Source: Octopus vulgaris (taxonomy: Eukaryota). From it: a stretch of 64,000 nt of DNA. This document shows, piece by piece, positions 37,185-64,000 of the stretch (position 1 is the stretch's first letter; the number at the start of each line of letters is the position of its first letter). A program made the translations under genes and the position numbers. Location: the NCBI GenBank assembly GCA_951406725.2, contig OX597821.1, positions 81,158,001 through 81,222,000 of the forward strand, read 5' to 3'. Below the pieces are notes generated by a model, which saw only the letters and a program-made list of their open reading frames with translations, did no database searches and was not told the DNA's origin.

Positions 37185-38607
37185 GAACTAGCAGCTAAGC
37201 CCGGTCCCCCGCGGTCTGTTTGGATGATGTGGCTGTGATCGTTTTCTGTTAGGTATAATCTATAACAGCGTTTCTCAACCTTATCATTTCGGGTTTTCTG
37301 TTTCGATTGGAGCCTCCAGCTGTATGAAAATTTCCTGACTCCCCCACCTTGTCAGAAAACAGCTTCAGGAGTTGTGAATAATGAATTTGTACATAGTCTG
37401 TTTCTGAGAGCTATTCTATTGGACCTCTGTCCAATCATTAAAACATTGATTTAATTATGAACATAGAAAGAAATTATACATTAATCCCTATTTTTGTAAG
37501 CAGTTGTATCCGTAAAAATGTGGTTTGCAGAGAGCAGAAATTGAAAGAAGATATATGAAATGGACGTGTGTGTGTGTGTGTGTGTGATAAAGGAACTTTT
37601 CTAACCATCTTGTATAATATACAATGTAAATTTAAGATATGATCTTCTTTTGTATAATACTATACTAGAGAGGCTAATATTTATGATGTGGTTAGAACTT
37701 CGGCTCACAATCATGAGGTAGTGAGGTCGATTCTTGGACCTGGCTGTATGTGTGTTGTGTTCTGGAGCAAAACACTTTATTTCATGTTGTAGAAATGTGC
37801 TGCGACGTCCCTGGCGCCAAGCTGTATCGACCTTTTCCTTTCTCTTGGATAACATCGATGGCGTGGAGAGGAGAGGCTGGTATGTATGGGCGACTGCTGG
37901 TCTTCCTTAAACAACATTGCTCGGACAGCATTGCCTCGGAGAGGAACTTTCTAGGTGCAAATCCCACGGTCATTCATGACCGAAGTGGGGGGGGGGGGTC
38001 TTTACTCCCTTATTTTTTTTAAAGGTTAATATTTATGCTATTATAATATTTATGACAGATATGTTTAAAATAAATATCGTGGCTGATACGAATTTATGTT
38101 TAACAGTAAGTTACTTTTAGATGGAAGTTGCTTTAGTAAGCTTTAGTAAGGTATGTTGTTAGGAAATATCTTATGTAACTTCCAATTCCAGCAACAAAGA
38201 AAGTCAGTTAACGATAATGAAATAAAGAGGCAAGTTTTTTTTTTTTTTTAGTTTCCTGAAATTTTGTTATGAGGATGATTAAAATATATTAAGTCAGATT
38301 ATGTAAGGCAAGAAATATATTTTTACAAGTTTACAGTTGATACAAAAGACTGTTTAGAAAGCTTGAGATCGAAAAGTAAATTGTATGCCTTGTGTGCGTG
38401 TGTGTGTTCACCCCCACCACCTGACAACCAGTGATATATGTGCCTGTAACTTAGAGGTTCGATAAAACAAACGGATAGAATGAGTACAAACAGACAAAAG
38501 AAGCTGTTTTGAGATGCCAATAGTAAATAGGTAATGTAAGGGAGATAATTCCAGGTAAGACATCAAGGGGAATAATTCTGAAATTGAAATGCGGACATTG
38601 TTTGATA

Positions 38608-45883: not shown

Positions 45884-47134
45884 TTGGGTTGGCAACTAAG
45901 TTCCCGCCGTTTTTAAAAATTTAAATTTAAAAAAAAATATTTTATAAATAACAACTAATTAATCAATAATGTATTCAACCTTGTTGTTTACAATTTCTTC
46001 CCAACGTTCAATAAGATTTTCAATACCTCGTTGGTAGAAATCACCCGATTCCGACTCGAAAATTGATCCAACCAAGCTCTCAGTTCTGCGTCTGTATTGA
46101 ACGAAACTTCGGGCATAGCATTTGAAAAAGATGGAAAGAGGTGGAAATCCATTGGTGCCAAATCAGCAGAGTACGGCGGGTGTGGCAGCACTTCCCAGCG
46201 ATGCGTTTGAATGTCTTCCTTGGTCATATTGGCGATATGAGGGCGGGCGTTGTCGTGCAGCAGAAGAACTCCATGCTGCCAATTAGGTCTTTTCTCTTGA
46301 ATAGTCGTGTTGAGTCGTACCATCTGTTGAATATAGAGTTCTGTGTTGACCGTTTGGTTCCATTCAAGCAATTCGTATTGGATAATCTCTTCCCAGTCCC
46401 ACCATACGCACAGCATCGTTTTACGCGGATGAAGATCTTGTTTCACGCGCGGTTGTCGCTTGTTTACCGGGACTAAGCCATCCCTTACACTGCTTCATAT
46501 TGATGTACTGGCACCATTTTTCGTCGCCAGTAACGATTCGGTAAAGAAATCGCTGCTTGTGTCCACGAGTAGAGCGGTGACGAACAAGCAAACCAGCGGA
46601 GATTGTGGCTCGTTGATTTTTGTTGTCACTTAAAGCATGCGGGATCCATGCTCCATACTTCTGAACCTTTCCCATCGAGTGAAGATGCTTTTCTATAGCA
46701 GTGTGGAAGCATTCCATTTTCTCTGCCAGTTCCCTTGTCGTTTGACGAGAACTTTCGTGCAAAAGTTGGTTTAATCGCTCTTCATCGAACTCAACTGGAC
46801 GGTCAGAAGGAGGTGCATCTTTGGGGTTAAAATTTCCATTTTTGAACTTGGCATACCAATCACGAGCGGTTCTTTCAGCTATGGCACCCTCTCCATACAC
46901 AACACAAATGTCGTGAGCAGCTTTTGCGGCCTTAGACCCTTGATTAAAAGCAAAAAGAAGGTGTCGAAAATGCTCGTTTTTCTTAACTTGACATTCTATT
47001 TTAATGATCTGAAAATAAACAAAAATTAACTAATAAAAAAAAAAGATTCCAAAATGATTCAAAAATAGAATTCTCGGAAAAAATAGATTCCTAAATTTAA
47101 AAAAAAAATGGCGAGAACTTAGTTGCCAATCCAA
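45884..47134 (-). mobile_element. Full-length mariner (DD34D) element, mellifera-subfamily-like
   Basis: TA TSDs (45882-45883, 47135-47136); TIRs ttgggttggcaactaagttcccgccgtttt / aaaatggcgagaacttagttgccaatccaa; 1251 bp. Confidence 0.95.
45959..46999 (-). pseudogene. Mariner transposase pseudogene
   Basis: Start mutated to ATA; NEHFRH..LFAFNQG, WIPHAL, IVTGDEKW, LHDNARPH, HPPYSADLAPMDFHLF and ERWEEIV...EYIID* are spread over several frames. Confidence 0.92.
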
Positions 47135-47849: not shown

Positions 47850-51510
<3,661 letters not shown>

Positions 51511-52149: not shown

Positions 52150-53180
52150 TCTTTTGGCCAAAGATTGGCCGAAACTTAACCAACTAAACAGCATCACCTG
52201 ACAGGATCTGATAAGTCATATTTTTATGTCAAGTTTTGAGGTATCATGGTCCATTCAAGTAGAGAGTTGTTGACTGAGATGTATCCAGATATAGGTGGCT
52301 TACCTGGTACCCCTTGAAGAAATTTGTCCAGGTTTCGTTTAAAGGTGATGAGAACTGTATCTTTTCGGTTTGACCGGCAGTTTTTTGAAATAATTTCCAC
52401 GTAACTAAACACTTTTAAACTTCGTATACTGGTAGAATGTGTTTATAAAACATCTTTTTCTCTTGGCTTTATTGAGAAAATTCTATAGTTTGTAAGATAT
52501 TTGTTGTTGTTTTTCTTCAATTTCTGCAATTTCAACCAATCAATGACGTCTGTTGAGGTAAACAATATTCTGTGCCGTATGAATATGTCCCTCGTTTAAG
52601 AAACAGATTGGGTTTATTTACATTTCTGAAGAAAAAAAGATACCCTTCCCCCCACCCTAACCCTAACCCTAAAACAGATTGAAATGCAATAGATCGATAC
52701 TAGGGTCATAATTATGGGTGACAATTTCATATGACACCGCTAGAAAAAACTGCCGTTCAAACCGAAAAGATCCTGAGAACTTTTTCCTTTTTCTTCTTTG
52801 AGTTGTTTTGGAATATAATGTTAAATAGCGCAGGGCCCGTTGAGGAAATGAAATTGTGTTGCAGTAAATTTTATATGCTGTGAACCTGAATTGTGTGGGG
52901 AGCATATGGTACGTGGCCCCAGCCTTGGATGAATTCTGAATCCAGTGTTAAGGTGGTGTGAGCAAAACCGATGGTATATTCTCCACGTTGTGCAAATGAT
53001 GTAGCACTCACGGTGGCGCTGGAGAGAATAAAGAATCAAGATCAATCATATCCTTTATTTTTTCTTTTTAGCGAAAGCTCTCTTGGAGTTTGGATAATGA
53101 GATCAAACCCCGTTTTGAGGAGGTCAGTTCTTGATGTGGACCCTGGATGAGAACCACTGATCTAAGAAATCTTCCATGCA
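52150..53180 (-). mobile_element. CR1-type LINE 3' region split by a MITE
   Basis: LYSLQRHRECYIICTTWRI (LYSL.RRRERY.II..WKI) and FKRNLDKFLQGVPGKPPISGY. Confidence 0.75.
52357..52773. mobile_element. MITE with ~29-bp TIRs and 8-bp TSD (Merlin- or hAT-like)
   Basis: tgagaact duplicated at 52349-52356 and 52774-52781; g(t)atcttttcggtttgaccggcagttttt / aaaaactgccgttcaaaccgaaaagatcc. Confidence 0.85.
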
Positions 53181-54660: not shown

Positions 54661-54842
54661 TCTGGTGCGCGCGTGTTAATAGAGAGAGAGAAAGAGAGTA
54701 AGCGAGAGAAAGAGGAGGAGGAAAGAGAGAAAGAGAGTATGTGTGAATAAGAGTGGTACGGGAGAGGGAGAGAGAGACTGAAAGAAAAAGAGAGAGGTAG
54801 GGAGAATGTTGCCAAACAGTATTTCTCCTCTTTTTCTCTTAG

Positions 54843-56788
54843 TCGCCCAGAAACTCGAATGTCGCCCTTAGCTCGCTGGACAGGTTACACAGAGAGGATA
54901 ACAGCAAAGATAGATATTCTTTAGCAGCAAGTTTTGGAATAAACACAGCTGTCTTTGGAGACCAGCTTCATACCAGGTCCATCCAGTTGGAGAAAATGAA
55001 GCAGTTGGACAGTTCCCCTTCTAGTAGAGTTTCCCCTGTTGAAACTGAATGCACTGAACGGGTCAACACACCTGAAACAGTCGACAAAGACCTACCCAGC
55101 GAAACAGCTTCTAAGACCTTGCACGAAGAAAAAATGGATAAAGTGGAGAATTCTTTGATTGATATCCAACCTCCAAGAGACGAACTGCAGGAAGAAAATA
55201 ATGAGTCAGCATTAGATGGTGAGAAAACGTTGCAAATGCTTTCTGCTTGTTCGGCAGATGAAGAAAATCAGACAATGCAATCTTTTGAATCGGACAATAC
55301 AATCAAACAAGAAGTGCAAACTGATATTCATAATCTTGAATTTAACCAGACAGGAAAGAAAATGGATGAAAGTTCATCAGTTTGTGGTGAGACGAACATT
55401 TTTGCCGTGTCCGACTCTGTTAGTTCAGTGGATGAAGTGGATAATTTGATACAAGTATCTGATTGTAGAACATCATTTAATGAAGAAGAGACTTCTAGTC
55501 TAAAGGACAGTGATGTACCATCGACTGATCTTTCCAAAACTGACTCAACAGTTAACTTCGGAGATATGAATCCTGCTTCCGATAATGAAGAAGATAGTCT
55601 CTCTGAATGTACGGCGACATATAATAGGGCGGAACAAGAAAACAGACCATCATCTAGTGAGGGGGAATCTTCAAGTTTAAAGGACGGTGATATACCATTG
55701 ACTGATCTTTCCAAAACTGATTTAACGGATATCTCTGAAGATATGAATCCTGTTTTCAATAACCAAGACGCTAGTCTATTTGATGGTGCGACGACATATA
55801 ATAATACGGAACAAGAAACTGCTTTTACAAGTGTTGGCTATGAACCTTCGGTGAAGTGCTGTATAAGAGATTCTATCTCTGAAAACAACGTTAAATCGTC
55901 TCCTGTTTGCCAGAATGAATCATCAACGCAGAATAACTCAAACTGTAACAAATTTTCTTCGAACACAATTGAAGAATCTACTAGCTCACCGGTTCATTTT
56001 CGAAAAAAAATCAGGAAAATGGAAATATTGCGAATTCCTACCAAAACTTCTCAGAAACGTAAAAAGAAAACATTGGAAATTGCCCAGAAAGATGCTCCCA
56101 TTTTTGATGTCGATACGACGATATATGTAGAAGAAGACAATTCTTCACCGGTTATTGCAAATGGATTGCATTTGAATGAAAACTCAAGAGAATGTTCCGA
56201 CGAATCGTTGTCAACTCGTCATCAACGAAATTCTATGAATAATACAAAAAAATCTAATTGCTTTTCAAGTGCCTCTAATACTGTTACTACTGTCCAAAAG
56301 TTCTTTGTTACAGTCGACAGCTCTTCCAGTGACTCAGAACTTTCGACTACATCCGATGACGATAATCAGTGTCGGCAAAAATGTAAAAAATGTAAAACAC
56401 ATTCTCTAAACTTACTCGCTTTCTTGGCAAGTGTCTTCGCACTCGTTACAGGAACATGTCTTCGGTCTGTGATTTCATCGAGAGATTACCGCACCATTCT
56501 CTATCTACGACTTCCTGGCCAGTTGTTCACTAATGTATTACAGATGCTAGCCATACCGTTGATTATCTCTGGCCTTATATCGAACCTTGCATCGCTCGAC
56601 AGAGGGCTGGCACGCCGCATTTGTCTACGTACATTCTTTTATTATTCCATCACGTCGTTTATTGCGTTAATGACTGGAGTCATTCTAGCACTTACCATTC
56701 AACCAGGCCAATTCGGCGTCAATCTGACCGTGGAGAAGCAAGCAGTTCCCAAAGTCAACATTTTGGATGTAATGTCAGACTTACTCAG
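54843..56788 (+). CDS. SLC1A: Large exon of an SLC1-family (EAAT / dicarboxylate-amino acid:cation symporter) transporter: long acidic N-terminal extension plus TM1-TM3
   Basis: ORF 54987-56792 ends with [30 protein letters not shown]...[27 protein letters not shown]...DLLR, matching SLC1 motifs FPGE...LKMLILPLI.SSL..GLA.LD, YY..TT, I.PG and LDLIR. Donor AG|GTGAGT at 56788/56789 splits the DLLR Arg codon. The frame is open from a pyrimidine-rich TAG acceptor at 54842; the first in-exon ATG is 54996. Confidence 0.9.
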
Positions 56789-57174
56789 GTGAGTTAAACA
56801 TTTCGTTCATTTTTCTTGTTTTGTTTTAGTTTTGTTTTACATGGTTTAGTAAGAGCAGAAAAGCTAACATATCTGATCCTTTTGAAGATTCCTGGGAATG
56901 GAGGCGGAAGGGAGAAGAGGGGTGGTTATCCTCACACTAGAGACCTGACTGATGAAAACACGTAAGGACCAGGAGATAATAATATCCATCAGGACGAGAA
57001 GGTGGCGAACTGGCAGAAACGTTAGGACGCCGGGCAAAATGCTTAGCGGCATTTCGCCCGTCTTCACGTTCTGAGTTCAAATTCCGCCGAGGCTGATTTT
57101 GCCTTTCGTCCTTTTCAGATCGATAAAATAAGTGCTAGTCGAGATAGATTAAATCCACCGCTTGTTTTTCTCAT

Positions 57175-57715
57175 AGGCGCTGGTATGGCTGCGTTGTTAA
57201 GAAGCTCGCTTTGCAATCACGCGGTTTCGGGTTCAGTCCCATGTTGGGAAAATGTCATTTACAACAGTCCTGGGGCGACCAGTGTCTTGTGAGTGGATTT
57301 GGTAGATAGAAACTGTGTGGAAATCTGTCGTATGTATGTTTGTGTGTGTGTGTGTATATGTAAGTATGTATGTATGTATGTATGTATGTATGTATGTATG
57401 TATGTATGCATGTATGTATGTATGTATGTATGTATGCATGTGTGTGTGTATGTATGCATGTATGTATGCATGTATGTAAGTATGTATGTATGTATGCATG
57501 TATGTATGTGTGTGTGTGTGTGTGTTTGTGTGTCTCCTTTCCTGCCTCTTTACAACTGTTGCTGGTTTGTCTACTTCCCCATAACATTAGTGGTTCGGCC
57601 GAAGAGATTGATAGAATACGTAGCACTTAAAAAGGTGCGTCGTGGGGTCAATTTGTTCAACTAAATCTTTAAAGGTGTGCTCCTACATGGCTGCAATCCA
57701 ATGACAGAAATAAAT
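57175..57715 (+). mobile_element. SINE family A with expanded (TATG)n core
   Basis: ggcgctggtatggctgcgttgttaag head and catggctgcaatccaatgacagaaa tail. Confidence 0.7.
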
Positions 57716-57928
57716 AACATTTCTTTCTTTTGGGTTGCTAATGTCCTGTTTGATTATTTTAGCTGAATCATTACAACGAGCTGTAGTCATTGTTACAGTA
57801 CTAGTATGTATTCACCATTTATTGTCACTGTCGTAATTTGCAATCACTGCGCAAGATCACAGCAGCGAGATATAACTACTGCGCATAGTCACTGCATTGA
57901 CACGAAGCACAAAGGGTGCTAAAAACGA

Positions 57929-57940
57929 TTATTATTATTA

Positions 57941-57992
<52 letters not shown>

Positions 57993-58720
57993 GTGACGAA
58001 AACTCACAGCTTATTTTGCTGAGTATGATGGAACGTGTCAGCAGACTAAGGCGACACTTGTTTACCGGCCCTAGTGTTCTTGGCGCCTCCCGCAAGTAGA
58101 ACTTTGGCGCCTTTACAGGTATAATTTTTTTTCAAACTTTCACAAGGTGAAAAACTGAAAATGTAGACTGAAAAGCACATGGTGCCCCGAGTGACTGCTC
58201 GGGTTGCCGGTAGCTTGAGCCGGCCCTGGTCATGCTTCAAGAACCGCGCGAAGAATTGTTGCAATTCCAAGCAATGCTGATTTTTGTAGGTATTCTACCT
58301 TCACACTTGCACCAATCTTTTTCAGCCATGTTAGTAGTTGAATGTTGATAGGTCCAAGTGCTCCAATTACTACTGGTATCACGTTTACCCTCCTCATTGA
58401 CCACAACCTTCGTATTTCCCCCTTCAAATGGCTAAAGTTGCTCATTTTTTCTTCTTCTTTCACATTGATCCTGTTGTCACCGGGGCATGCTTTGTCAATT
58501 ATCATGCATGTTCTTTGTTTTTTTATTGACCATAACATTGTCCGGTTTCCGATGTCTGGTCAAGTGATCGCACTGAATCATTGCTTCCCACAAGATTTTG
58601 CAATTCTCATTCTCGGTGACTCCTTCTGGGGTTTCCTCACACTACGGCTTCCCTCTTTGTAGGCCGTGATTTCCACAGAGATCCCAATGGATCATTCTTG
58701 CCGCATTGTCATGGCGTCAC
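57929..58720 (-). mobile_element. R4/Dong-clade (restriction-like endonuclease) LINE 3' end ending in (TAA)n; 3' UTR interrupted by a hAT-like MITE (~58068-58228)
   Basis: RHDNAARMIHWDLC...KILWE...RKPD...IIDKACPGD...VIPVVIGALG...LQKSALLGIATILRAVL*; (ATT)n array 57929-57992. Confidence 0.85.
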
Positions 58721-58724
58721 TGTT

Positions 58725-59300
58725 GGAAAAGAAAAAAAATCTTAACATCGGGTTACAACAAGTAACCTTAGATACCAAGAACCTTCCTAAGTATCCTAGC
58801 GGTCCCTAATAACACTGTTTTCTGGAGCTGTACTAAATTGGGTTTTATGCCTATTTCTTCTATCCATCAGTTCAAATTTTTAGGGACAGTTCCCAATGCA
58901 TCTATAACCACTGGGATACAGTTTACCCACTCTTTCCATAGTCTCTGTTATTCAATGGCTAGGTCCTGGTACTTTGCTATTTGTTCTATACCTCTCATAT
59001 TAATTTTTTCATTATTTGGGACTGTAAAGTCAATTATCTGCCACTTTATATTCTCTGCTACTACTAAATCGGGTCTTCTATTTTCTATTACCCTGTCAAT
59101 CTGAATGTTAAAGTCCCACAACATCTTATATTTCTTACTTTCTAGTACTTTACTAGGTTCATGTTCATACCATGCGTCAGTATGGTAAAATCCTAGCTTT
59201 CTACATAACTCTCAGTGGATTACTCTCCCTAAGTTGTCATGACTTTTCTTGTATTCTTCCTGCGCCAGCATGCTACATCCACTAACTATATGAGTAACAT
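58725..59300 (-). mobile_element. Second, distinct R4/Dong-clade LINE 3' end
   Basis: CSMLAQEEYKKSHD...WYEHEP..VLE...LWDFNIQIDRVIENRRPDLVV...IIDF.VP...KYQDLA...IPVVIDALGTVP...LQKTVLLGTARILRKVL. Confidence 0.85.
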
Positions 59301-59309
59301 TTTCTTCTT

Positions 59310-59356
<47 letters not shown>

Positions 59357-60139
59357 ACACTATCTATCTATACATGCATACATATACCTACCTACCTACC
59401 TACCTACCTACCTACCTACCTACCTACTTACCTACCTATCTACCTACCTACCCACATACCTACCTACCTACCTACCTACCTACCTTCCTACCTACCTACC
59501 TACCTACCTACCTACCTACACATGCATGCATGAATATATACATACATACGCACACAACACACATATAAGACGGGTTTCTACAGAGTTTTCGTCTACCAAA
59601 TTTATTCCCAAGGCAATGGTTATGGTAGATGACACTTACGCAAAGAGTTATGGAATGAGACTGAACCAAAAAAGAAAAAAAAACCCATTCGGTTGCAAAG
59701 CGCGCTTCTTAACCATGTCGCCATACCTGCGACATTAGTTTTGTAGAGGGCTGTGAAGATTAATCAAACATTTCCTCGGGATGTAAGGCAAGGAGTGGGG
59801 ACCACTAATGCAAAGGATCCTTCATCTGGTTATCTCGCTGGTTGGTGAGAGAGTTAATATCCACTGTACTTTAGAAGCAAATCCAACCCTAGATATATTT
59901 GTTCGATTCCTAGATTGTGGGACCCTTGATCATCTGCATAATTTATCTCCTGGTAAATTTGGCAATGAAATAAAACTTTGGCAGCCCCCTTCTCTTTATA
60001 TCTTAAAGCATGTGTTTATTTTGTTTTTTGGTTGATTCCATTCTGGATAAAGAAAAAAAAAAGGATCAAAAGCATCCTTCTCGAGCCCTATAGACTCATA
60101 GGGACTGGTCTCCCAGTTTTCGTGGCGTATATATTTCTA

Positions 60140-62530
60140 TAGTTGAAATTTGCAGAAAAACAAAAGACGACGACAGGTGTATAAACAACAAACAGATGTA
60201 TTAGTTTAACGCTCGAGAAGGTGAGAAAGTCTTTTATGTTTCGAGCCTACGCTCTTCAACAGAAAGGAACACGAGGAAATAAACAGAGGGAGAATTGAAA
60301 AAATGCTTTTGGAGCTAGCGGTCAGTCATGGCGGCTGGCTGGACAAAGGTAGTTAGACAGGAGAGCTAAGAAGAAGGGGAGATAATAAAGTAATGGTGAT
60401 CCCAAAATGAAGGTGCGCGTGCGTGTGTATGTGAGAGTGTGTAAATGTGTGCGTGTGGATAGGGGCTGGTGACTTTAACGTGTGGATGTGTGCGTGTGTG
60501 CATCTGTAATGTGTGGCTGTGTGGATGATGGTGTGGGTGCTGGGAAGTGGTCAGTGCTAGTGTGTGCGGGGTGGTGTGGTGGTGTGTGATGTGGTGTGAC
60601 GGTGTAGGGGTGTGGGGATGCGAGGGTGGGATTGGGATAAAGATGTGGGGTAGGGGTGGGGTATGTGGGAGAGGGATGTGTAGGGGTTGGGTGTGGATGG
60701 AGGGGGTATCGATAAAGGGAGAAGGTGGATAGGAATGAAGTGAGGAAGTAGGTGCTAGGACAAGAGAGGAGAGGAGAGGTGGGTAGGAGTGAAAAGAGGA
60801 AGTAGGTGTGAGATGAAGATAGGAGAGAAGGGGAGTCAGATGAAGAGGGGAGGGGAGTTGAGCCCACGTGGCGCAATGGAGTGAAGAGAGAAGATTAATT
60901 CCTGTTCACGGCGAAGGTAGGAGCCCGGGTGGCCCCTGTGCAAAGACAATCCTAAGGCAGACAGGTGTTGTAATGAATGACTGGTAGAGCGGAAATGGCG
61001 CGAGACCGGGGTGTTGTTGCCGAGTCTAATGTCTCGGAGGTGCTCCGCGAACCGGTCAACCAAGCGGCGTCCCGTTTGACCGATGTACAGAGAAGGACAG
61101 AAAGAGCAGGAGATGCAGTAAATGACATTGCTAGAAGTGCATGTAAAGGAACCAATGATATGATAGGGACGATGATGGGTACCGGTGAGGATGGTGGTGT
61201 TGGAGAGGTAAGGGCAAGTGCGGCAGCATCGGCGGGAGCAGAGGAACGGGCCAGGTTGGGAGGTGGGGTTAGGGAAGAAACTGGGCCAGGAGGTCACGCA
61301 TATTGTGGGCTCGTTTGAAGAAGGGGAGGAGTAGGTTGGGGAAGATGTTCGAAGTGGAGGGGTCGGACTGGAGTCACCGGAAGGCTCGGAGAATGGTGAG
61401 TTGAAGGGGCAGGGTAGAGGGGTGGTAGGCGAGTGGAAATGGGAGACGGGTAACGGCGGTGAGAGAGAGCAGAGGCACGGTCCACGGAACGTGCTCTGGT
61501 AAGAGTGGTGTGGATAGTGGTGAGGGGATATCCACGAAGGATGAAATGGCGAGCCATGAGTTGAGACTGAGTCTCAAAGTCATGGTTGTCACTGCAGAGC
61601 TTGCGCAGACGGAGGAATTGGGAGTAGGGGATGGAGAGCTTGGCGTGGGTAGGGTGGGAGGAGGAGAAGTTAAGGTATGAGCGTGAGTCGGTGTGTTTGT
61701 AGTGGATGGAGGTAGTGAGAGTGGAGTTATGTACGTTGACCGAAATGTCGAAAAAGGCAACGGAGTGTTGGAAATGGTGCAGGAGAATTAGAGAGCAGGA
61801 TGGAAGGATTGTTCGTGGGAGAACGAAGTCGCACTGATACAGTCATCAATATAACGACCGTATAGTTCGGGAGTGGGACAAGTGAATCTTGAAAATATTT
61901 GGGCCTCAACGTAGCCAACAAACAGGTTCGCATAGTTGGGGTCCATTCTCGTTCCCATGGCCACTCCCGAGACATATTGGTAAAAGTCCCCCGTGGACGT
62001 GAAGAAGTTGAGGGAGAGAACAAGTTCGGCTAGACGAAAAAGTGTGGACGTGTCAGGGTTGAATTGTCTATGAAGTGTTTGAGGGTAAGAAGTCCTTCGT
62101 GGTGTGGGATCACCGTATATAGACTCTTGATATCGAGAGTGAAGAGAAGTTTAGAGGGACCAGGAGGGAAAGAGAAGGAGTTGAAAAGGACGAAGAGCAT
62201 GGTTAGTGTCGTGGATGTGTGAGGGGAGGGAAGCCACTAGGGTAGCAAGGACACGGTCGAGGTATTCATAGATCAGTTCCGTGGGACAGTTACAGGCGGA
62301 GACGATGAGGTGCCAGGGTTGTTGCGTTTGTGGATTTTGGGAAGGAAGTAAATGGTGGGGGTGCGAGGAGTGCAGACGATGAGGTTGGAGGCGGTTGAAG
62401 GGAGACGGGAGGAGGAGATGAGGTGACGGATAGTGGAAGACATGGTCTGTTGGTAGCTAGGCATGAGGTTGAAGGGCAGAGGGCAGTAGAGGGAGGTGTC
62501 TTGAAGTTGGCGGAGAGCTTCAGCGTTCGA
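60140..62530 (-). mobile_element. Penelope-like element (Neptune-type): frameshifted RT plus GIY-YIG endonuclease and terminal repeat
   Basis: YFLPKIHK, VAMGTRM.PNYANLFVGYVE, RYIDD, Cys-rich linker CSRRCCRTCP, and FTCTSSNVIYCISCSFCPSLYIGQTGRRLVDRFAEH...REQELIFSL....PRGLN. Confidence 0.92.
60231..60266 (-). ncRNA. Non-canonical minimal hammerhead-like motif in the Penelope terminal repeat
   Basis: cttt-CTGTTGA-a-gagc-gtag-gctc-GAAAC-ATA-aaag; helices I and II form, core A6 is replaced by U and helix III is degraded. Confidence 0.45.
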
Positions 62531-63568
62531 CACTCGGACTGTACTCGGGCTTAGCCCGAGTACAGATTTGATGATGTGAACGTGTATTTGCAAGCTGATT
62601 TAATTTCTGCCAATATTGATCTCAAGTATATAATTGCAGCCAATAACTCGAGCTCCTTTTATTGGTCACAGTTCATTTATTTTCGTTCAGGATGGACAGG
62701 ATGCTGGTCCGTTGCAGGATTAGTCATTTTTACCAGCTGAGTGGATTGGAGCAACATGAAATGAAGTGTTTTGCTCAAGAACACAATGCACAACCCGGTC
62801 CAGGAATTGAAATCACAATCTTACGATCAACACCCTAACTTCTACACTCCCAACCTGACTATACTATAAATTGAAATCTACCGCATCTGATTTGCATAAA
62901 AAAAAAGTACGAGTATATTAGGCGTATTCTAATTTCAGTAGCGTATATTCAAGAGAAAATAGTTTTTAGTGCATCAAAGCATGCAATATTGAAAGTAATT
63001 TTGGATATAGGACCTGGGGTGACATTTTGAGATTTTCTTTTTCTTTTGGAAAAAGTGTGCGCCTTATATGTCATCAAATCTGGTACAATGCGTTACATTC
63101 AGTAAATTATAATATTGTGGTAGTGTTTGTTGACTACAGTCTCGTAATTATTCAATAAATCTGAACATGACAATGAGCAGCAAACGAAACTGTTTTAACC
63201 TTATATTTCAGCCATGTAGCCTTGTCTGAAATAGATTCTGAACTGAATTCTCCATAAGAAACTCTGATTTGTTATAGTAAAACATAATTATTATCCAGTG
63301 TACCGTAGCCATCAAGGACCGTTCACACCTTGTATTTAAAAGATTTGGGACTATCAGGCTACAGCAGTCGGAACTCATTTTCATCCGAGTAGACTGGAAC
63401 ATCGTGAAATGAAGTGTTTTGTCTAAGGACACAACGCCTCGTCCGAGAATCGAATTCTCGACCTTACGATTGTGAATCTAACAGTTTTAAACGCTTGACC
63501 ACGCACCTTCAAAACATCTAATTGTTATATTTAGTTTCAAATAAGGTACTTAATAACTTTATTTCACT

Positions 63569-63910
63569 ACTAGCACTATGTGCTAGTGCATGCATATACA
63601 GCTGCGTGCGTGCGCACATGCACGCAAGTACTGTCCAAATCTCCGACCAATCACATACTGCTAGCTGGCATTCAATTGGCGTATTAAGTTTCGGGCATAG
63701 AAACTTCACAATTGGATAGAAAAATCACAAAAATGTCACTTCTATTGATTTTTTTAATGGCTTTGCTGGGTGACTGGTGAAATGTAAAGATGTGCACGAC
63801 CACCCTTGGACGGTTTTGAATGACCATAGACAGTGCGAGCCCTCTAGCTGAAAAATGGATTTGTATAAAGGACACACACACAGACATTTTGCTGTTTATA
63901 TAGAGAGAGA
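63569..63910 (-). mobile_element. Probable non-autonomous Helitron, internally deleted
   Basis: Minus-strand A|TCtctctatataaacagcaaaatgtctgtgtgtg start and catagtgCTAG|T end; subterminal hairpin not seen. Confidence 0.45.
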
Positions 63911-64000
63911 TGCGCTAAGGGAAGCAAATTTATATGAGAGTCGGTAAATCGATTACATCGACCCCAGTACTCAACTGACACTTATTTTAACGATCTCGAA

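Follow-up and report, generated by a model that had tools for sequence, protein, structure and literature searches.

What has become of a glutamate-transporter relative whose gene places an acidic stretch of several hundred residues in front of the first membrane helix? The question is raised by one exon of Octopus vulgaris, at positions 54843-56788 of the window (the whole stretch of 64,000 nt analysed here, G000:C8:81158001-81222000). A sequence-only reading had proposed that this single giant exon encodes a long, repeat-containing extension joined to the first helices of an SLC1 transporter. Two matters need to be settled: whether the extension is translated, and what the transporter behind it can still do. 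The features of this gene in the window, all on the plus strand, are as follows; P0003 is a related protein introduced below.

54843-56788, +: large exon with a 5′ segment, the acidic extension, TM1-TM3 and the loop to TM4a (open frame; donor confirmed by RNA, acceptor at 54843 from sequence only)
54996-56402, +: acidic low-complexity extension, 469 residues, predicted to be cytosolic and disordered (composition, AF2, homology to the P0003 extension)
55467-55818, +: tandem duplication that keeps the frame, two copies of 59 codons that agree at 79% of nucleotides (repeat comparison)
55998-56069, +: basic clusters, partly conserved in P0003
56316-56363, +: Ser/Asp run upstream of TM1; similar run in P0003
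56370-56396, +: Cys/Lys cluster adjoining TM1; not kept as a cluster
56403-56788, +: SLC1 scaffold helices TM1-TM3 (Pfam SDF; human EAAT1 chain, E=7.8e-17)
56789-64000, +: start of an intron of 26 kb in all; seven other exons lie beyond the window

A single large exon

The exon is read by one frame of 649 codons without a stop (54843-56792, + strand), found in a reading-frame scan. In 2000 base shuffles of the exon the longest open frame was 169 codons, and the extension has 15 and 67 stops when read in its remaining frames. An AG/GT donor closes the exon at 56788; its 5′ side has a pyrimidine tract and an AG at 54842, recognized from the letters.

Contigs from four of the 24 listed runs, which we guess to be RNA runs, were compared with 54805-56900. 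In three of the four (three studies), a contig departs from the genome at the donor and resumes 26 kb on, at C8:81240824; in the fourth the contigs end short of the donor. Since the letters resume 26 kb beyond the donor, the contigs derive from processed RNA. Jointly, the contigs of the four runs span 54905-56789, and they start at 54905-55150, downstream of the acceptor at 54843. One contig joins 56108 to the next exon, and none joins the first 370 codons to that joint. An internal splice joint was sought in the contigs over 54905-56789 and none was found, including near TM1, where splicing in would have left the extension out of the message. Thus, the proposal of a single giant exon stands.

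Two details of the exon may be added. At 55771 all four runs have A and the assembly has C (Ala to Asp in the runs); the assembly letter may be a rare allele or an error. Upstream of the ATG at 54996 there are out-of-frame ATGs at 54806 and 54859, each opening 21 codons, of which the one at 54859, within the exon, could be an upstream ORF.

The gene beyond the window

Exons 2-8 were sought in ten adjacent stretches, guided by the splice joint and by a canonical EAAT paralogue on C9, on the basis of GT-AG sites, frame and homology. All are on the plus strand.

G000:C8 81240823-865, +: TM4a; first joint, matches the loose ends of the contigs
G000:C8 81242128-356, +: loop; predicted, the weakest exon
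G000:C8 81247500-683, +: TM4c-5; predicted from GT-AG, frame and homology
G000:C8 81250760-993, +: TM6 and HP1; predicted from GT-AG, frame and homology
G000:C8 81256170-364, +: TM7; predicted from GT-AG, frame and homology
G000:C8 81258785-919, +: HP2; predicted from GT-AG, frame and homology
G000:C8 81261814-904, +: TM8 and stop; predicted from GT-AG, frame and homology

RNA verifies the first of these seven joints. Joined at GT-AG sites, the eight exons form an uninterrupted frame of 967 codons, although the product is only 35% identical to the C9 paralogue, and when aligned to solved chains they supply TM1-8, HP1 and HP2 in order and in a single frame. The SDF domain (PF00375) is recognized by Pfam on TM1-3 at 52.6 bits against a curated cut-off of 27.9 (E=4.7e-14), which bears out the assignment to SLC1; it is above the cut-off in two further exons and below it in two more, at E about 1e-5. 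The TM8 exon is the top AG-acceptor candidate in the 63 kb behind HP2 (score 44 vs 8 for the runner-up), but on its own it matches EAAT2 only at E=0.92.

The canonical octopus EAAT (G000:C9:40138328-40411437) retains all ten key transport residues, and its TM1-3 exon is followed by the next one after about 208 kb. Two genome searches found two SLC1 loci, this one and the C8 gene, and no others, a count to be taken as a lower bound. Intron positions and phases are the same in the two genes at every joint compared, the C9 counterpart of the loop exon not having been found, and this common structure suggests that the octopus gene arose by duplication of a molluscan EAAT. In a 25-row tree the gene is the longest branch, with 3.0 changes per column, and the tree leaves it unplaced among the EAAT clades.

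Close relatives were sought with phmmer using TM1-3 as query against 1.84 billion representatives, giving 1251 matches. The second-best, P0003 (520 aa, a cluster of three), groups with the octopus gene at SH-aLRT 95 in a quick TM1-3 tree of 175 rows and 135 columns; in the same tree a wider group that includes a scallop protein has SH-aLRT 81. P0003 is presumably from another cephalopod. This grouping bears out the earlier proposal of a lineage-specific SLC1 paralogue.

A public model of the gene exists (CAI9727076.1; UniRef A0AA36B4L6), of 771 aa and named 'putative sodium-dependent excitatory amino acid transporter glt-4' [Octopus vulgaris]. It is the only database protein found with the large exon, which it holds letter for letter, and it annotates two upstream exons, at 38052-38105 and 53072-53122. 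Coding exons upstream, which would give the ~540-aa version of the extension, have no support from the contigs, all of which start 3′ of 54843. Exact look-ups of four frames based on the exons gave no match in the protein collection. It halts after TM3, without TM4-TM8, and adds two non-SLC1 pieces (G000:C8:81223710-81223757 and 81231531-81231755). As the contigs support a different next exon, the public 3′ end is wrong.

Composition of the extension

Between the ATG at 54996 and TM1 there are 469 residues, and Ser, Glu, Thr, Asp and Asn make up 52% of the first 466, in good agreement with the roughly 470 acidic low-complexity residues described from the letters. The first 300 are net acidic, and there are 25 S/TxxD/E sites. 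Hydropathy does not exceed 0.71 in any 19-residue window, so the extension has no hydrophobic segment. SLC1 topology places the N-terminus in the cytosol, and the extension is predicted to be cytosolic. An AF2 model built on a three-row alignment has pLDDT below 50 and no secondary structure across model residues 1-413; its mean pLDDT of 34.7 from three rows is weak evidence of disorder. On composition and model together the extension is likely disordered. Another in-frame ATG, at 55134, is a possible alternative start, as the start of P0003 aligns near it.

The repeat within the extension, also noted before, consists of two 175-nt copies spaced 177 nt apart. The copies score 150 against each other in octopus and the corresponding stretches of P0003 score 31, and the duplication therefore likely arose on the octopus branch.

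The shorter motifs reported earlier (FRKKIRK, QKRKKK, the Ser/Asp run, a stretch of 13 protein letters and RICLR) are all found in the exon translation, and they fared unequally. The basic clusters are present but had been placed after the 470 residues; they lie within them, at residues 335-358, about 110 residues before TM1. The Cys cluster next to TM1 loses its value as a clue, with one Cys retained in P0003 and the first Cys changed to Tyr in a closer relative (run X14, below). No Pfam family is above cut-off in the extension, a comparison of its middle with the whole genome gave no second match, and an atlas look-up gave no lead besides SDF.

Is the extension translated?

P0003 has 382 residues before TM1. 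It is 31% identical to the octopus protein over 452 residues and 46% within TM1-3. When the extensions alone are aligned, the score is 145, against maxima of 108 in 1000 global shuffles and 122 in 1000 local shuffles. Across 172 other rows, of which many are partial, N-termini have a median length of about 37 residues, and a GPCR-SLC1 fusion record is the sole one with more than 200. This record, P0168 from Macrostomum, has a rhodopsin-family GPCR fused to a whole SLC1 domain and is possibly a merged gene model.

Run X14 comes from a closer relative, about 94% alike, with 40 of the 96 rows of differences listed. Among the listed differences, 11 are silent and 8 are replacements in the first 87 codons (54996-55256), giving omega of 0.2-0.28 (p=0.0005-0.006); in TM1-3, 9 are silent and 11 are replacements, giving omega of 0.42-0.54 (p=0.05-0.12). 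All five listed differences upstream of 55089 are silent in the reference frame (p=0.0006-0.002), as against one and none of the five in the other frames. The dN/dS comparison suggested earlier thus speaks for a coding extension.

Stops or frameshifts in relatives had been named as one finding that would speak against the extension. The extension of P0003 is open. In the X14 contig one base is missing at 55089 and another at 56261, and if these deletions were real they would disrupt the frame of that relative; each falls in a homopolymer, the contig depth is 4.6, and each can be explained by one substitution together with a homopolymer that has become shorter. Because of these sites, the low depth and the upstream differences that are silent in the reference frame only, the deletions are read here as likely errors.

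The homologous extension of about 380 residues in P0003 and the mostly silent changes in X14 argue that the extension is likely translated. Considering all the evidence, we are confident that this is a real gene with a translated extension. The proposal of a long N-terminus that is likely disordered likewise appears sound: composition and an AF2 model without structure favor disorder, and homology to P0003 and the excess of silent changes favor translation.

The transport site

The predicted back half of the protein was aligned to solved EAAT chains and to 14 references; of the 24 other rows in the 25-row tree, 10 were dropped because they nearly repeated another row or because their back half was broken or absent. 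In EAAT3 numbering, the replacements are M367T, D368N, G369A, T370G, E374K, D444N, R447G, T448V, G454S and S332C. The TM7 motif NMDGT thus reads NTNAG, whereas N-M-D-G is found in every one of the 14 references; among the dropped rows, one from Macrostomum reads N-M-N-G. The HP2 tip is also altered, with bulky Arg and Asn. Retained are N366, Y373, S333, D440, R445, N451, D455 and the TM3 Tyr/Thr/Ser. Equivalents of the alpha-carboxylate ligands N451 and S333 are thereby kept, as are those of the Na1 ligands G362, N366, N451 and D455.

The NMDG and TM8 residues had been singled out as those to inspect, and besides the TM7 motif the inspection found D444, R447 and T448 to be N, G and V. Altered substrate handling, suspected from the first exon, is therefore likely, but it is the downstream exons, outside the exon first read, that reveal it. 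The motifs on which the suspicion had rested, LPGQ and RICLR in TM1-3, are present; they were rejected as functional clues, as P0003 has FPGE and KLGLR and a sponge EAAT has FPGQ.

The roles of the replaced residues are known from other members of the family. In EAAT3, N451 and S333 hold the alpha-carboxylate and R447 and T370 the distal carboxylate. D444 is the ligand of the amino group in other homologues; coupling of Na+ to substrate depends on M367, and E374, the proton carrier, forms a pair with R447 in the apo protein (PMC7929514). In rat EAAC1, the carrier without substrate binds Na+ with lower affinity when D367 is Asn, and forward transport is lost with E373Q (PMC2151618). At several of the positions D444, R447, T370, E374, M367 and D368 one change is enough to abolish glutamate transport by EAAT3 (PMC7929514, PMC3737229, PMC2151618).

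With D444, R447, T448, T370 and E374 replaced, glutamate uptake is unlikely, and from these residues the protein is very probably not a conventional glutamate pump. It should be noted that the octopus gene keeps four of the ten coupling residues, and that 11 of the 14 references keep all ten. The other three keep six or seven (a scorpion, a mite and a row grouping with the scallop protein; P0143, P0099, P0077); they lose E374 and keep NMDG, so partial loss of key residues occurs elsewhere. Against the general divergence of the gene (69 of 109 conserved columns kept) the loss of six of ten has p=0.12, and front versus back half has p=0.24; a targeted redesign of the site is thus not shown. The transport-domain changes are known from one genome, that of Octopus vulgaris.

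Comparison with known SLC1 proteins

The octopus protein has the fold of human EAAT1-3 (SLC1A1-3) and the C9 EAAT, with the helices in the same order, and keeps their Na1 ligands, their N451 and S333 and their anion-filter Arg. It is unlike them in the 469-residue front, NTNAG, D444N, R447G, T448V, E374K, the altered HP2 tip and a very short C-terminus. A partial parallel is the Culex dicarboxylate transporter CuqDCT, also the second SLC1 gene of its genome. In both proteins D444 is replaced by Asn and T448 by a non-polar residue, Ala in CuqDCT and Val in octopus. CuqDCT, however, keeps R447, where octopus has Gly (PMC3737229), and octopus in addition loses T370, the NMD motif and E374 and gains the long extension.

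ASCT1/2 (SLC1A4/5) lack Arg at the R447 position, as does the octopus gene. They also have no Glu at E374 (PMC7929514), but they keep D444 (PMC3737229) and NMD, where octopus has D444N and NTN. By its residues, then, the protein would be an SLC1 member that belongs with neither the EAATs, the ASCTs nor the DCTs.

What might the protein do?

Our working proposal, tentative and at somewhat less than even chance, is that the protein carries non-amino carboxylates with weak coupling to sodium and also conducts chloride. The protein would still fold and trimerise, judging from the TM4 motifs and loop sequons that are kept. The retained N451, S333 and Na1 ligands would hold one carboxylate and one Na+. 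D444N with T448V would remove recognition of the amino group, as in the mosquito dicarboxylate transporter, and M367T with D368N would loosen sodium coupling. Among the most speculative steps, E374K may replace the positive charge lost with R447G, as residues 374 and 447 are in contact in apo EAAT3; the same change would abolish coupling to protons and potassium. Equally speculative is the role of the extension: cytosolic, acidic, rich in Ser/Thr and with short conserved blocks, it might be a phosphorylated tether or control trafficking. D444N with a changed T448 goes with dicarboxylate selectivity, and EAAT3 D444S/T448A carries succinate and has a chloride conductance (PMC3737229). Against a carrier, the mosquito transporter retains R447 and the octopus gene does not, and EAAT3 D444N alone gives no transport current (PMC3737229); moreover, transport requires the gate to close, which the bulky tip of HP2 may prevent.

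A broader possibility, more doubtful than the carrier, is that a cephalopod SLC1 lineage has turned a glutamate pump into a non-transporting anion channel or signalling scaffold, with a disordered domain of 380-470 residues kept across distant species. Its two halves can be weighed separately. A substrate-independent anion channel, perhaps gated through Na1, using the SLC1 chloride pathway and regulated by the extension, would agree with the heavily altered transport site and with the equivalents of the EAAT1 anion-filter residue R477 and of Q445, L296, P290 and D112, all of which are kept. EAAT1-numbered changes are S103G, M89T, M286T, A289S and L88F, the numbering resting in part on what we take to be a 20-residue offset, itself a weakness of this explanation. 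Each hydrophobic gate thus has Thr in place of a Met (M89 and M286, respectively) and looks looser, and weaker gates raise the chloride share in EAAT1 (bioRxiv 10.1101/2020.05.25.115360). Yet S103 is Gly in octopus; in P0003 the residue at S103 is Thr and that at M89 is Val, and the two proteins do not have these changes in common. According to the same source, the channel opens at an intermediate stage of the elevator movement; this movement may need bound ligand. On balance a pure channel seems rather unlikely.

Slightly less likely again is a membrane anchor that conducts nothing, its trimer positioning the disordered domain or its heterotrimers with the canonical EAAT regulating the latter. 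The length of the branch, the kept TM4 motifs and the extension kept in the distant P0003 would fit it; but buried G362, N366, N451, D455, S333 and R445 and the Pro and Gly of HP2 are also kept. An anchor has no obvious need for so many of them, although their number does not exceed background.

It is very unlikely that the extension is untranslated, with a start near TM1, or that the long frame is the relic of a decaying gene. The two X14 deletions, contigs that lack the transcript 5′ end and an omega in TM1-3 that is high for a transporter would suit such a history, but there is no in-frame Met between residue 414 and TM2, the five listed differences before the first deletion are silent in frame, the P0003 extension is open and homologous, and 967 codons are intact. 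Finally, an ordinary glutamate/aspartate transporter with a long N-terminus is most improbable: the SLC1 fold, SDF matches in five exons and the 'glt-4' label point that way, but D444, R447, T370, E374, M367 and D368 are all replaced and the label belongs to a model without a transport domain.

Significance

The ways in which SLC1 proteins couple transport to chloride conductance, or keep the two apart, are still being worked out, mostly on engineered mutants. The octopus gene offers a natural, intact, spliced variant in which the Na3, proton and amino-acid sites are replaced together, with the canonical C9 paralogue of the same animal as control. If the channel or scaffold interpretation were true, it would be a wild-type SLC1 protein with channel function separated from transport.

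The gene also matters for annotation. 'EAAT1' is among the markers in cephalopod atlases (PMC9712504, PMC12240821, bioRxiv 10.1101/2024.04.14.589438), and 'EAAT' serves there as a glial and neuronal marker; the public model of the octopus gene is wrong and hides the changed sites. The atlas marker tables could list the gene under another name, and the squid label 'Eaat1-2' hints at more than one copy. A literature search, outside which most subscription journals lay, gave no description of the octopus paralogue, and no relevant passage on it was found in PMC9815951 and PMC6386654.

Three further features lie near the exon. In the intron, broken frames at 60836-62599 (- strand) resemble a Penelope-like reverse transcriptase and GIY-YIG element; a Pfam scan of pieces from this interval gave no match. 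Upstream, a Mos1-like mariner transposase lies in two frames at 45988-47029 (- strand), with Pfam HTH_48 and Transposase_1. Between it and the large exon is a CTTT array of 3.66 kb (47850-51506), with about 916 copies at 86% matches, 3.3 kb upstream of the exon.
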